Sequence record: OP978391.1
Origin: Escherichia phage HP3.2
DNA: 64,000 nucleotides
Direction: 5' to 3' (one strand)
Shown: positions 1,770-7,266 of the stretch, in pieces
Layout: each line of letters opens with the position of its first letter
How positions within the stretch are numbered: the first letter of the stretch is position 1
The notes under the pieces: generated by a model
Seen by the model: only the letters and a program-made list of their open reading frames with translations
What the model was told of the DNA's origin: nothing
Databases searched by the model: none
Made by a program: the position numbers and the translations under genes

Positions 1770-2615
1770 TTAATCAACTGCTATTGGATGAATAGCATTA
1801 AACTTATGAAATGCTTCTGATTTTTCTTTACGCGAAACACACATGCGAAGAACCTTTAATGGCTCGTCTTCTTCACCCAACGATTTTCGTTTTTCAATAT
1901 TCGATGTTTTCCAACGAGCTTGCTCTGGAAACTCTCTATTGATTTGCTCAAGCGCTCTATTATGTTTAGAATTACTACGAATTGAACTACACCCACCGGG
2001 AGCGTGTGATTTTCCAGATACAACTAGATATTTGAACAAGGCCAAATGCGGATAACCTTGATTAATTAAATTGAGAAATGCATACATATCTTCGCATAAA
2101 TCAATTTTTCCATACCCAATTTGTTCTGTCGTAAGTTTTCCGAGGTCATACCATGTATTCGTGAATCCATATGAGTTTTCACGATAATTGCCCCAAGATG
2201 AAGTAATTTTAAAAATTGGTAGACGAGCATGACCGTGATAATACCCGCAATCCATGGCATCTTCAACGTATTGAATTAATTCATAGAACTGTTCACGAGT
2301 TAATTGATTAATTTTATCTACACGCCGTTTATCGTCTCTCTTTCGTATTGAACTCATACGAATAGTAGTATCATCAATCATCCAGATTCGTTGACCTGCA
2401 TACATATCAGTAATTGCTTTACGAGTACCGGCAATTCCATTAACATCATCAGGAATAGTTACAATTTTAGCTCTAGACCCATAAGCATCATAATAAGCTT
2501 TTTCTTCGTGTTCACGCACCACAATATGGGGTTCATAATCAGTCGGAAACATATTAAGGGCAGAAACTGCCCCGACACGTTGATAACTTGGAATTACGAA
2601 TTGAATCATTTCCAC
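1770..2615 (-). CDS. Hypothetical 281-aa protein at the beta-glucosyltransferase locus; candidate hmC-DNA sugar transferase
   Basis: Fills the uvsX-42 gap where T4 has beta-gt (ca. 351 aa) but does not match beta-gt in length or N-terminus; has DxD-like motifs (MIDDTT, CEDMY); function by position only. Confidence 0.45.
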   Translation of the reverse strand: MEMIQFVIPSYQRVGAVSALNMFPTDYEPHIVVREHEEKAYYDAYGSRAKIVTIPDDVNGIAGTRKAITDMYAGQRIWMIDDTTIRMSSIRKRDDKRRVDKINQLTREQFYELIQYVEDAMDCGYYHGHARLPIFKITSSWGNYRENSYGFTNTWYDLGKLTTEQIGYGKIDLCEDMYAFLNLINQGYPHLALFKYLVVSGKSHAPGGCSSIRSNSKHNRALEQINREFPEQARWKTSNIEKRKSLGEEDEPLKVLRMCVSRKEKSEAFHKFNAIHPIAVD

Positions 2616-3346
2616 TCACCTTTATAGTCTTTTTTCACAATATGAGTTTCGCCAGTATTCCACCAATGATCAACCAAATAAAAATGACGAGAATATACAT
2701 GAAGACTTCCAACATTCCATATAATAGAACCTGCTTTATACTGACGAGTTGAATCGCCTGCATTCAAATCAGATACTAATTTATCTAATACGTATTTTTG
2801 CCATGCATAATCATTACGGAATCCGAAGACCACGTCATTTGAGCGCATGCTTACTACCGCATTGACTTTCTTATCACGAATCAAGTACTGTACTGTATTA
2901 GTACACATGAAATCTGACATACCATCTTTATTGTAGTCAAACTGCATAGATGGACGAGTATAAATCATGATACCACGTCGAGAATCAGGATTTTGACCAA
3001 GTTCAGCTAAACACATATCATACTGGGCATAGTTATCTTCTGACCAAATAGCCCAACCATAATTCGAGTTAATTTCGCCTTTAGAAGATGCTACCTGCTG
3101 CCAAATCTTTGGTGTTTCACCTGGAATATCTTTAACAAACAAACTCTTAGATTTATACCATTCAAGTTCACGCTGAATGTATTCATCATTAAGAGCGCCA
3201 AAAATAAACGGTTCATCTGCTACAAATGATGCGCCAATAATTTCAATAGTTTTAACACCAGTTTTATCAACTACGAAATCTTTTTCTTTTAATGCAAGCC
3301 CCAAATGAAGACGGATTTCTTCAACTGTCATAGAGTCACTAATCAT
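2606..3346 (-). CDS. 42: dCMP hydroxymethylase gp42 (246 aa)
   Basis: 246 aa as in T4 gp42; thymidylate-synthase-like fold region; position between beta-gt locus and imm. Confidence 0.9.
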   Translation of the reverse strand: MISDSMTVEEIRLHLGLALKEKDFVVDKTGVKTIEIIGASFVADEPFIFGALNDEYIQRELEWYKSKSLFVKDIPGETPKIWQQVASSKGEINSNYGWAIWSEDNYAQYDMCLAELGQNPDSRRGIMIYTRPSMQFDYNKDGMSDFMCTNTVQYLIRDKKVNAVVSMRSNDVVFGFRNDYAWQKYVLDKLVSDLNAGDSTRQYKAGSIIWNVGSLHVYSRHFYLVDHWWNTGETHIVKKDYKGEWK

Positions 3347-3499
3347 TTAAACCTCAATTGATACATTCATATTTAACTTGTAACAGTAATAAACTCCAAC
3401 CTAAAATAATAGTTGGAATCATAAGAGGAACCGTTACACTATAGTATATACTTATTATAATCATCAAGATTAAAAGCAACACTGCTATAATTTTGCTTT

Positions 3500-3751
3500 T
3501 CATTCCTTCTCTCTGATGATAATTACTTGATTTGGCTGTGCAGACTTTTTAGTTTCACCCGCAATTGACCAAATAAATGTAATAAACCAACCAATAATTG
3601 ACCAGTTAAACAGTAAAGATGTGAAAAAGATTCCTACTGTCGATTTTGACCCACGCATCAAGGCGATAAACCATGGAAGCATGTATATAATAATAGCCAA
3701 CACACCTGAAACTAAAACCATAAAAATTGAACCTGTTACTAAAGTTTCCAT
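3500..3751 (-). CDS. imm: Imm superinfection immunity membrane protein (83 aa)
   Basis: 83 aa with two hydrophobic helices (LVSGVLAIIIYMLPWFIALM; IIGWFITFIWSIAG), matching T4 Imm. Confidence 0.8.
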   Translation of the reverse strand: METLVTGSIFMVLVSGVLAIIIYMLPWFIALMRGSKSTVGIFFTSLLFNWSIIGWFITFIWSIAGETKKSAQPNQVIIIREKE

Positions 3752-3758
3752 ATTTTCC

Positions 3759-4139
3759 TCACTTAGTCAAATTTTTTACACATGAATTATAAGAATTCAC
3801 TACATACTCCATCGGAGCATTTTTACCAGTACGCCATTGGTAATTATTGGCCCAATTAGCCCAAAGCTCGGCGCAGTAGTTTTCAATTTTTTCTTCGCGT
3901 GTAATTACATCCGAATTACGATATGCTTGAGCAGATTCATCTGGACGAATAGCCTCGTCAAAATTCGCCTGCATTTGTTCTACTGTCTGTTTTGGAGCTT
4001 CTTTATAACACTTGACATTAGGATTATAAAATTTGCTTGAACAGTTTACAATTTTTCCTACATCAGACTGATTTACTACCGGTCCTTGAGCTACACAACC
4101 AGTAAGACCTAATGCAATAACCAAAATAGCGATTTTCAT
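3759..4139 (-). CDS. Predicted lipoprotein (126 aa), imm-adjacent
   Basis: N-terminal signal peptide with lipobox MKIAILVIALGLTGC; several Cys in mature part. Confidence 0.6.
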   Translation of the reverse strand: MKIAILVIALGLTGCVAQGPVVNQSDVGKIVNCSSKFYNPNVKCYKEAPKQTVEQMQANFDEAIRPDESAQAYRNSDVITREEKIENYCAELWANWANNYQWRTGKNAPMEYVVNSYNSCVKNLTK

Positions 4140-4149
4140 AATAATTTCC

Positions 4150-4398
4150 TCAAATACAAGTAGTAATTACTCCAGTAGTGCTTATGCAGGTATTACCCAT
4201 TTGCACACCTAAAGATCCATTTGTATTCACATGAAGATTATCATCAATTTTAACTGATATTTTACCATTAGTGTGAATAACAGTGCTAGATTCAATCACA
4301 GGTTGAGTATCATTTTCAACACTAACAAATGGAACTGCTGCTAATGCAACTAAACAAACTGCTAAGCAACCCATAACAATTTTCATTTTATTCTCCAA
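4150..4398 (-). CDS. Small secreted/membrane-anchored protein (82 aa)
   Basis: N-terminal signal-like hydrophobic segment MKIVMGCLAVCLVALAAVPFVS; first gene after an early promoter. Confidence 0.5.
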   Translation of the reverse strand: MENKMKIVMGCLAVCLVALAAVPFVSVENDTQPVIESSTVIHTNGKISVKIDDNLHVNTNGSLGVQMGNTCISTTGVITTCI

Positions 4399-4414: not shown

Positions 4415-4480
4415 GATAGTTGTATAGTACCATGGAAGAACAGAGATGTAAACAGTTTTGTGAAAATTTTTTAGGGAATT
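4415..4480 (-). promoter_or_regulatory. T4-type early promoter
   Basis: Minus strand reads GTTTAC-17 nt-gTACTAT with AT-rich upstream region; nearly identical to the cassette at 45300-45385. Confidence 0.6.
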
Positions 4481-4540
4481 CTAAATGTCCAGAATCATCT
4501 GTTTTTCATAAGTATAGATTTATATTACTTGTATGAAAAA

Positions 4541-4556
4541 GGGACCCGGAGGTCCC
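4541..4556 (-). terminator. Intrinsic terminator downstream of gene 43
   Basis: Minus-strand RNA GGGACC-UCCG-GGUCCC hairpin followed by UUUUU. Confidence 0.65.
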
Positions 4557-4569
4557 TAGATTTATTCTA

Positions 4570-7266
4570 TCAGCCAAACAGGAAGTCTAACGAAGCTTTT
4601 TCTTCATAGTCCATACCAGCCGATTCACACATGCCCGCAAGCGGTTTAACAAACGATTTTTGGAACAAAGTTGAGTAGTCAATCCAAGACAGTACGTCAG
4701 AACGAATTTCTTTTGGAAGTTCTGTACCCGACGGCCAAGCAATGCATTTGTCACCAAATGGATTTCCTTCACGCAATGGAAGAACCATTACTTTATTTCC
4801 ATCCAAAATTGGAGCTACACCTAAACCGCTAACAGCTCGACGATAAGTTAGCACACCACGAATATGGAACGGACATTTAAATCCTGGCCAACCTTTATCA
4901 TCATATTTCGCTATATCGTTCGCAGTTTTTACTTCAGCAATAACTTTATAGTCGAGTTGACGATATTCTTTCTCGAAGTTCTTGTAATATTCTTGGACAG
5001 ACTCTTCACCTTCCTGAAGAATACGACGAATACTTTCTTCGAGAGCTTCTTGTACTGCTTTTGGTGTTGAACTCTGCTGAGTTTCCATACCCATGATTTT
5101 TAGATGCGGTTCAGCAAATCGTTTATCTTCCATATCATAAACGTTCAGAGCATAACGCTTTTTCGCTTTCCAAAATCCACCAATACCCTTTGAACCAAGT
5201 GGAGGGCAAGAAATAGCTTCACGGTCCATATGCATCAGATGCTCGCGGTTATTCATATAATCACATAACTCACGATATGCAACATCAATCATAGGTTCCA
5301 TCTTTTTCTTACCGAACTGATTCATAAATTCAACCAAATCGTTCTGCTCTTTGAATCGGTCAAGACCAACTTTTTCAATAACTTTATCTACACAAACATA
5401 TACCGAATCAGTATCACCTGCTGCAATGAAATCTTCGCCATTAGTTCCGCATACTTTATTCAGATATTCATTAATTTTACGAGCAATCCACTGAATACCA
5501 ACTTGGCCAAAAATTGTGATAGCAGTAGCATTTCGCAAATCATAGTAACGGAAATGAATATTACCAAGAGCACCATAAAGACTGTTAATGAGAATTTTAC
5601 GGTTCAGCTGATTTGTGTTAGCAAGTGTAGCAGCTTTTTCACATTCTTCAATCAAACTATTGAGAACAGATTCAGTATAATTCGACAGTTCATTTAAGAA
5701 ATCATCACTGAACTTAACATATCGTTCAACTTCTGGTTTAGTTGAACAAGACCCTGCGCCTTTCATAATAATCTTTTTAATAGCTTCGGCATTCATTTCT
5801 TCAGCGAACATTTTCTTTTTCCAGTCTTTACGCTGGAAAAATACTTTAGCGATTTCCTTTGGAATGATACCTTCTTGATGCTTATCATACATCCATCCAT
5901 TCGGAGAACAAGAATATTCTTCACTTGGCTTAGGAGCTGTTCCTGCGATATATTCATGAATTGGATGAACTTTAAATTGTCCACGAATAGTCTCAGGACT
6001 AATGTTAACCTGACGAATAATGCTCGGATACAGAGACGTCAAGTCAAAACTCATAATATATCGACGAGCAATTGGTTTAGGTTCAAACACAAATGCACCC
6101 GGAAAACTCTGTTTAACATGCGAACCTTGTTGAGGAATAACCTTATGTTCACCTTTCAATGAGTTAAAAATAATAGCATCCCAAGTTTTAATAGGACTCA
6201 TTACACCAGAAAAAGGCATTTTAGCATAATAAGACATACTTAAAACTAGATCGATAAACCCGCGAATTTTATCAATTGCTTGAACTGATTCTACGTCAAT
6301 GATGTTATAACTAATGTATCGTTGATGATTAGTCTCACGAAGTTTATTAATAGGACCATCATACGGTAATTTACCTTTTTTGGTTTCATGTTGAGCAACT
6401 GATTCCAAAGAGAATGACGGCAAATTAGTAAAAGCGAATTTCTTGTACAAATCTAAATAATCAAGAATAGATACGCCATCAATAGAATAAATTTCTTTGC
6501 TACCGTACATATTTTGAATTAGTTTAGATTTTACTCGACCGATTGGAGAGAAGCGTTTCATACTACGTTCACCGAGAACCATTTTAACACGATTCATGAT
6601 ATACGGAACGTCAAATCCCTCAATATTCCAACCAGTAAAAATAGCAGGTCGTTTCTGTTCCCAGAGATTGATATATTCCATGAGCATATCACGCTCATTA
6701 TCGAATGGCATATAAATTACTCGGTCAAGAATTTCTTGAGGAACTTCATCACCACCTTCACAGTCAAGCTTAGCAGCTAACTTTGCATCCCATTTTGATA
6801 CTGAACCGTACATTGAATTCAAAAGGTCGAAAACATAAAAACGATCATCAATTGAATCATAATGAGTAATAGCATCAATTTCATATTCTGCTTTCATTGG
6901 GTCAGGAAATTTATCACCAGTAACCTCAATGTCACAGTTAGCTACACGAACAAATTTTCGGTCATAAACAATTTCTGAACCATATGTATCACTGATATAA
7001 GCGAGTTTAAAATCGTTCATACCGAGAGCTTCGAGACCGATGTCTTCCATTCGTTTCATCCAATCTCGAGCATCTTTCATTGATGGAAATTTTTGAGGAG
7101 CGCAGTTTTTACCATAGATGTCTTTGTATTTTGACTCTTCCTTACAATGCCTAAACATAGTCGGAAGATATTCTACTTCACGAGTACGTTCCTTTCCGTT
7201 TTCATCAATATAACGTTCAACAATGTTATTTCCGACTGTTTCAATAGAGATATAAAATTCTTTCAT
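4570..7266 (-). CDS. 43: DNA polymerase gp43 (898 aa)
   Basis: 898 aa as in T4 gp43; family-B polymerase motifs (FDIE exo, YGDTDS). Confidence 0.95.
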   Translation of the reverse strand: MKEFYISIETVGNNIVERYIDENGKERTREVEYLPTMFRHCKEESKYKDIYGKNCAPQKFPSMKDARDWMKRMEDIGLEALGMNDFKLAYISDTYGSEIVYDRKFVRVANCDIEVTGDKFPDPMKAEYEIDAITHYDSIDDRFYVFDLLNSMYGSVSKWDAKLAAKLDCEGGDEVPQEILDRVIYMPFDNERDMLMEYINLWEQKRPAIFTGWNIEGFDVPYIMNRVKMVLGERSMKRFSPIGRVKSKLIQNMYGSKEIYSIDGVSILDYLDLYKKFAFTNLPSFSLESVAQHETKKGKLPYDGPINKLRETNHQRYISYNIIDVESVQAIDKIRGFIDLVLSMSYYAKMPFSGVMSPIKTWDAIIFNSLKGEHKVIPQQGSHVKQSFPGAFVFEPKPIARRYIMSFDLTSLYPSIIRQVNISPETIRGQFKVHPIHEYIAGTAPKPSEEYSCSPNGWMYDKHQEGIIPKEIAKVFFQRKDWKKKMFAEEMNAEAIKKIIMKGAGSCSTKPEVERYVKFSDDFLNELSNYTESVLNSLIEECEKAATLANTNQLNRKILINSLYGALGNIHFRYYDLRNATAITIFGQVGIQWIARKINEYLNKVCGTNGEDFIAAGDTDSVYVCVDKVIEKVGLDRFKEQNDLVEFMNQFGKKKMEPMIDVAYRELCDYMNNREHLMHMDREAISCPPLGSKGIGGFWKAKKRYALNVYDMEDKRFAEPHLKIMGMETQQSSTPKAVQEALEESIRRILQEGEESVQEYYKNFEKEYRQLDYKVIAEVKTANDIAKYDDKGWPGFKCPFHIRGVLTYRRAVSGLGVAPILDGNKVMVLPLREGNPFGDKCIAWPSGTELPKEIRSDVLSWIDYSTLFQKSFVKPLAGMCESAGMDYEEKASLDFLFG

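Follow-up and report, generated by a model that had tools for sequence, protein, structure and literature searches.

The mechanism by which T4 Imm blocks DNA entry has been debated for decades, and another early protein of T4, the exported Spackle, inhibits the gp5 tail lysozyme (PMC7677548). The gene next to imm in T4, imm.1, is early at both the RNA and the protein level (PMC9697503 supplements). In a genome-wide CRISPRi-ART knock-down of T4, the function of imm.1 is listed as unknown and its score is 'Not Fit' (-0.77; PMC11879866 supplement), which denotes no fitness cost under single-phage laboratory conditions, single-phage fitness being the only quantity measured (PMC11879866). The same screen scored imm as 'Fit' (1.40, p = 0.02; PMC11879866 supplement file 15), and this score may come from a polar effect on gene 42, which lies downstream. 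An exclusion role for imm.1 is only speculated on in a comparative paper (PMC5885020). The literature search returned no paper testing the function of imm.1, and no experiment linking Imm.1 or the small upstream ORF orf78 to exclusion.

Here, the imm locus was analysed in a 64,000-nucleotide stretch of Escherichia phage HP3.2 (OP978391.1), hereafter the window. The interval from 3759 to 4398 is composed of two real early genes of a T4-like phage, imm.1 and the gene for a small accessory protein predicted to be exported or anchored, orf78. Both are known T-even genes that have already been annotated, and what the analysis yields is a candidate partner for Imm. The best explanation, which is unproven and to which a probability of about 0.45 was assigned, is that Imm.1 acts as a periplasmic, outer-membrane-side partner of Imm, with orf78 as an accessory. 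Imm.1 thereby becomes a concrete and cheap candidate for a partner in the long-debated block. Beyond this idea the interval is ordinary, and orf78 is one of several alternative occupants of its slot.

Gene layout and early signals of the imm locus

The nucleotide comparison showed that the 1.3-kb region around imm.1 and orf78 matches Escherichia phage HP3 at 100% and hundreds of T4-like (Tequatrovirus) genomes at 98-99% identity. The HP3 RefSeq record (NC_041919.1) carries the taxonomy line 'Caudoviricetes; Rosemountvirus', yet its genome is a T4-like one of 168 kb that is near-identical to Tequatrovirus in this region. Downstream of gene 43, which encodes the DNA polymerase (4570-7266), come a terminator and an early-type promoter and then a close-packed run of four small envelope genes, all on the minus strand. 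These are orf78 (4150-4386; PHROG 4189; 4150-4398 in its 82-aa form), imm.1 (3759-4139; a predicted lipoprotein precursor of 126 aa, DUF5481, PHROG 1754), imm (3500-3751; Pfam PF14373, E = 8e-16; PHROG 1039) and a hydrophobic gp42.1-like ORF of 49 aa (3354-3503; PHROG 3610, E = 1e-25). Both ORFs of the interval lie on the minus strand, and their position between gene 43 and imm, as given in the initial annotation, was confirmed.

On the same strand, gene 42 (2606-3346) is followed directly by the gene for a 281-aa beta-glucosyl-HMC-alpha-glucosyltransferase (1770-2615; PHROG 842, Pfam TAGT). T2 carries a beta-glucosyl-HMC-alpha-glucosyltransferase gene at the same position, and T4 has a 351-aa beta-glucosyltransferase there instead. 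Rfam searches of both strands gave no match beyond a sub-threshold snoRNA, which was taken as chance, and the NCBIfam and PADLOC searches gave no meaningful matches.

The gaps between orf78, imm.1, imm and the gp42.1-like ORF are 10, 7 and -4 nt, respectively, and each gene has its own Shine-Dalgarno (SD) site, that of imm overlapping the stop codon of imm.1. The start of the very hydrophobic gp42.1-like ORF overlaps the stop codon of imm (ATGA). T4 has an intact copy of this ORF, 98% identical, that the RefSeq record leaves unannotated, and the ORF also follows imm in phage VR26 and in the metagenomic relative L008. Because this ORF comes right after imm, the run of envelope genes numbers four. 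Three envelope-targeted proteins in a row had been described at the outset; the products of both imm.1 and orf78 do look exported, but the 49-aa membrane ORF had been overlooked.

The terminator and early promoter proposed ahead of the ORFs were both recovered by scans. The terminator scan placed the intrinsic terminator of gene 43, a G+C-rich hairpin, at 4540-4557 on the minus strand (GGGACCU-CCGG-GGUCCC, then UUUUU), directly past the gene 43 stop codon. Its RNA fold has an energy of -14.9 kcal/mol (z = -2.2), and it is conserved in T4. The consensus scan identified an early-type sigma-70 promoter at 4424-4452 on the minus strand (TTTACA-17 nt-TACTAT), preceded by an A/T-rich tract and bearing TG ahead of its second hexamer; its T4 counterpart is nearly identical and stands directly upstream of imm.1. 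As read from the sequence, the GGAG SD site of orf78 lies at 4393-4396 on the minus strand, 6 nt before the ATG at 4386; in T4, the same untranslated region (UTR) and SD site drive imm.1. The only other terminator-like match that the scan gave in the stretch was a weak 5-bp stem inside orf78 (4350-4337), taken as a chance match, and for this reason the co-transcription of orf78, imm.1 and imm is plausible. The claim that both genes belong to one early unit with imm is accordingly supported by the tight gaps and by the lack of a convincing terminator between them.

Imm.1 as a predicted lipoprotein

Judged by its sequence, the 126-aa gene is the ortholog of T4 imm.1, a gene that is already named and uncharacterised. 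Its product is 99% identical to T4 Imm.1 (NP_049661, UniProt P18057), and the proteins of T2, T4, T6 and HP3 are 98-99% identical to one another. Imm.1 scored 239 bits with Pfam PF17578 (DUF5481), for which the cut-off is 27 (E = 5e-72), and matched PHROG 1754 with E = 5e-44. The suggestion of a module expanded over that of T4 did not hold, since T4 itself has the lipoprotein gene, imm.1, with a 99% identical product, and only orf78 is extra. In the RefSeq records of HP3, T4 and T2, imm.1 bears the product name 'iduronate sulfatase'; this name was rejected, as no sulfatase signal was found in Pfam or NCBIfam, and it looks like a propagated mis-annotation.

In codon-level comparisons with other Tequatroviruses, dN/dS was 0-0.10 for imm.1 (one comparison, for example, gave 14 differences, all synonymous), 0-0.14 for imm and 0.30-0.43 for orf78. 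Both imm.1 and orf78 are therefore more than chance ORFs, as both are under purifying selection. A 67-aa ORF on the plus strand (3837-4040) was rejected because it is antisense to a gene under strong codon-level constraint.

The N-terminus of Imm.1 (MKIAILVIALGLTGC) matched the PROSITE-style lipobox pattern (PS51257-style) with residue 15 as the lipidated Cys, in agreement with the LTGC lipobox first noted in the 126-aa protein. The signal peptide and lipobox are encoded at 4095-4139 on the minus strand (MKIAILVIALG-LTGC; Cys15 codon at 4095-4097). The layout is that of a lipoprotein, with a positive n-region (MK), a hydrophobic h-region (IAILVIALG) and LTGC15, as assigned by pattern match. 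On these features Imm.1 appears to be a convincing lipoprotein. The mature part holds four further Cys residues (33, 44, 89 and 120), and just two of these, C89 and C120, are invariant in the family; its description as a Cys-rich domain was thus an overstatement.

The lipobox is kept in 24 of the 25 full-length representatives of PHROG 1754. Residue +2 in the family is V, A, G, S or Q and never Asp, which predicts that Imm.1 would be sorted to the outer membrane. The one exception, P0004 (L008, 718-1086; a metagenomic relative), has Phe in place of the lipid-bearing Cys together with a signal-peptidase I site, AHA|SD, and its product would be a soluble periplasmic protein. The P0004 gene still stands directly upstream of imm, which is followed by the gp42.1-like ORF. 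Because of the Phe and the AHA|SD site in P0004, the lipid anchor is considered dispensable in at least one lineage.

The single-sequence HMMER search with Imm.1, exhaustive over 1.84 billion representatives, returned only 6 clusters, and the profile search of the family returned 27 cluster representatives, 25 of them full-length. A further sequence, P0043 (86 aa, labelled Xanthomonas campestris), is a fragment of a KP01-type PHROG 1754 protein and is probably phage sequence within a bacterial assembly. Alignments showed that the family invariants Y38, C89 and C120 and the YNP and YR.S motifs of the DUF5481 subgroup are all present in HP3 Imm.1. In other genera, imm is accompanied by lipoproteins of 146-167 aa, which HMMER on the mature domains did not link to DUF5481. 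When the mature profiles were compared by hhalign, these lipoproteins aligned with DUF5481 at 76% probability over 109 columns, both Cys residues being aligned, and the reversed-profile control gave 0.2%. All of them matched PHROG 1754 over the full length (E = 1e-15 to 1e-51), and this common profile places the 146-167-aa lipoproteins and DUF5481 in one family.

AlphaFold2 (AF2) prediction of Imm.1 from the single sequence was poor (pLDDT 60). With the 6-sequence alignment, pLDDT reached 64, and confidence was confined to a C-terminal helical hairpin (81-104 and 110-125); residues 16-50 were modelled with low confidence despite the conserved motifs there. In the model, C89 and C120 are close to the hairpin's open end, at a spacing that differs among family members; they probably form a disulfide staple of Imm.1. 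Comparison of the model with solved and predicted folds gave no match outside the family, and a profile search of PDB sequences with Imm.1 found nothing. The lack of a match to any known fold counts against the mechanism proposed below, as does the partial confidence of the model.

Linkage of imm.1 to imm and the slot of orf78

The candidate status of imm.1 rests on its having stayed beside imm in every sampled T-even genus, through a relocation and a swap of order. A PHROG 1754 lipoprotein gene adjoins imm (PF14373) in all 10 lineages sampled, comprising 7 T-even genera and 3 metagenomic lineages, in three gene arrangements. It is directly upstream of imm in Tequatrovirus, Gelderlandvirus (Melville), Jiaodavirus (KP01), Moonvirus (Moon) and the 3 metagenomic lineages; in Gaprivervirus VR26 and Dhakavirus IME341 the order is reversed, and the lipoprotein gene lies downstream. 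The imm.1-imm pair of Mosigvirus (ST0, RB69) is at a different locus, inserted between 61.4 and spackle, and this relocation brings imm.1, imm and spackle together. The neighbour of imm in Melville, KP01, Moon, VR26 and IME341 is the 146-167-aa lipobox protein. Each of the four divergent clusters from the single-sequence Imm.1 search was likewise directly upstream of a PF14373 imm gene (4/4). Imm was present in 1011 phage records, and Imm-domain proteins outside the T-even subfamily (Obolenskvirus, Moovirus and a Vibrio phage) had no lipoprotein neighbour.

A functional tie between imm.1 and imm is supported by this conserved linkage across T-even genera. Gene order is strongly conserved in the T-even subfamily, so the adjacency of imm.1 and imm is weaker evidence than it would be in bacteria. 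The same conservation of gene order favours the alternative that Imm.1 has an envelope role unrelated to superinfection, for example in keeping the outer membrane or peptidoglycan stable during infection, in adjusting lysis or lysis inhibition, or in opposing a host defence located in the envelope, and that it travels with imm as a small early membrane gene of the same inherited block. Other small membrane ORFs (gp42.1, orf78) also gather at the locus, Imm.1 has no phenotype on record, and the gene was dispensable in the CRISPRi-ART screen. Against such a role, the imm.1-imm pair stayed intact through the Mosigvirus relocation and through the order swap in VR26 and IME341 while the neighbouring slots turned over, and the alternative is considered unlikely.

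The ORF upstream of imm.1 had been described as an 82-aa protein with a signal-like segment. Its hydrophobic N-terminus was borne out, but the length was not: the TTG at 4398 lies within the GGAG SD site, and a start at the ATG at 4386, which gives 78 aa, is the better reading and agrees with the length in the RefSeq annotation. The ORF falls in PHROG 4189, and the 325 phage records in which it occurs are all T4-like. The N-terminus has one Lys (K2), a hydrophobic stretch of 21 residues (3-23) and an A14-L15-A16 site, and the C-terminal part is beta-rich with Asn, Thr and Gly and contains Cys67 and Cys77. The product would be export-competent, and the 21-residue core, with the 7-aa repeat expansions described below, fits an uncleaved anchor as well as a cleaved signal peptide. 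It was rejected as a lipoprotein, since VMGC, at residue 7, stands too near the N-terminus and the residue at -1 in LAVC is Val.

The hydrophobic segment of orf78 (4318-4386 on the minus strand; also L004, 1513-1770, and L020, 713-970) varies in length between phages. This variation consists of tandem 7-residue (21-nt) repeat units of the LAVCLVA type, and in the variant P0018 the repeat variation creates a lipobox-like site, LAAC.

T4 and T6 have no orf78, and their slot between the promoter past gene 43 and imm.1 is empty. In T4, the promoter, UTR and SD site are joined straight to imm.1 at ATGAAAAT, which is common to both start regions; by its sequence, this arrangement looks like a deletion between the starts of orf78 and imm.1. 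The slot in T2 (L014, 1680-1931) holds an unrelated ORF of 83 aa without a signal peptide (PHROG 18567), and that in L008 (450-662) holds a Frd.3-like ORF. As the slot is empty in T4 and T6 and filled by other genes in T2 and L008, orf78 is an accessory occupant of a variable slot outside the conserved imm module. It may be another envelope or exclusion accessory gene.

Proposed role of Imm.1 and comparison with known systems

In the proposed partnership with Imm, Imm.1 would be exported by Sec, lipid-modified and cleaved at Cys15. The mature protein would then consist of a tether of about 35 residues with the conserved motifs VV.xS.VGK and YNPxxK.Y, leading to a small helical domain, with the invariant Cys89 and Cys120 in its final two helices. 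Together with the inner-membrane protein Imm, it may help prevent superinfecting T-even phages from delivering their genomes or from damaging the envelope. The target would be something common to all T-even injections and not a particular receptor. An accessory or competition role of this kind fits the 'Not Fit' result of imm.1 in CRISPRi-ART.

The bacterial receptors used by T2, T4 and T6 differ (OmpC/LPS, FadL/OmpF and Tsx). Imm.1 is regarded as not receptor-specific because the proteins of T2, T4 and T6 are 98-99% identical. This bears on the possibility that Imm.1, orf78 or both mask, from within the periplasm, the outer-membrane receptor used by the phage itself, in the way that T5 Llp acts on FhuA or as Cor does. 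In favour of masking, Imm.1 is small, is made early and carries a lipobox with predicted sorting to the outer membrane, and there is a precedent (PMC9586334). The near-identity of Imm.1 among phages with different receptors, under very strong purifying selection, argues against masking, as does the existence of the anchorless variant P0004. Moreover, the HP3 proteins had no Llp or Cor family match in Pfam, PHROGs or PADLOC and no fold match, the only match to Cor being to a signal peptide in IME341. The evidence weighs less heavily against masking by orf78, which evolves faster, and nothing specifically supports it. Receptor masking is on the whole highly improbable, and the comparison with T5 Llp in the initial annotation was given up on the grounds that Imm.1 is so similar in T2, T4 and T6 despite their different receptors and that one variant is anchorless.

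Plasmid-borne imm alone reportedly excludes T4 (Lu and Henning, 1989), so Imm.1 would not be strictly required for exclusion. Exclusion by imm alone also suits a different explanation, in which Imm.1 is a periplasmic inhibitor that works independently of Imm in the manner of Spackle, its target being either a host enzyme of the periplasm or some conserved component at the tip of the incoming virion. The adjacency to imm would then reflect shared early expression and shared purpose rather than physical partnership. Such an inhibitor would be in keeping with the periplasmic location as the conserved feature, the lipid anchor being one that can be lost (P0004), and with the cluster that imm.1 forms with imm and sp in Mosigvirus; the near-identical Imm.1 proteins of T2, T4 and T6 would fit a conserved virion target. 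On the other hand, profile and fold searches revealed no likeness to Spackle or to any inhibitor fold, and all sampled lineages showed linkage to imm, linkage to sp being confined to Mosigvirus. An Imm-independent inhibitor is therefore judged rather doubtful.

The partnership of Imm.1 with Imm is retained as the best explanation. A more specific form of it, in which Imm.1 and Imm constitute a two-membrane exclusion device, conserved across the T-even subfamily, that acts on a receptor-independent step of genome delivery, is possible and can be put forward only tentatively. If true, such a device would explain how Imm, an inner-membrane protein of 83 residues, stops injection within minutes of infection. 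In summary, the initial view of the locus as a superinfection-exclusion module is supported in part, through the conserved linkage of imm.1 to imm, but neither its expansion nor receptor masking could be maintained.

Compared with the closest described systems, the HP3 locus is most like that of T4, in which Imm.1 is the same gene in the same position between gene 43 and imm, with the same promoter, UTR and SD site. The two differ in the lipobox, which is LAGC in T4 and LTGC in HP3, and in the extra orf78 ahead of imm.1 in HP3. T4 Imm and Imm.1 share an early transcription unit, an envelope location and co-inheritance across the T-even subfamily. However, Imm has two helices, lies in the inner membrane and lacks a signal peptide, whereas Imm.1 is a predicted lipoprotein with a soluble periplasmic domain, and the two have no sequence relation.

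T5 Llp and Cor, expressed early or from a prophage, resemble Imm.1 as small lipoproteins for which a place on the inner leaflet of the outer membrane is predicted, with disulfides in their mature parts. Their block is directed at a single receptor (FhuA), whereas Imm.1 shows no variation in step with the receptor used and has no sequence or fold similarity to them. The product of orf78 can be compared with the T4 RI antiholin and other small exported T4 proteins, which are short and begin with a hydrophobic segment in which Gly, Ala, Cys and Val abound. Like RI, it would have a small periplasmic domain with Cys, although detectable homology was absent in Pfam, PHROG and NCBIfam. T4 Spackle (gp61.3) is a soluble substrate of signal peptidase I that targets the gp5 lysozyme (PMC7677548), and it has no sequence similarity to Imm.1. 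Nevertheless, both are small early proteins, exported to the periplasm in the case of Spackle and predicted to be so in that of Imm.1, Spackle is involved in exclusion, and in Mosigvirus its gene directly follows imm.1 and imm.
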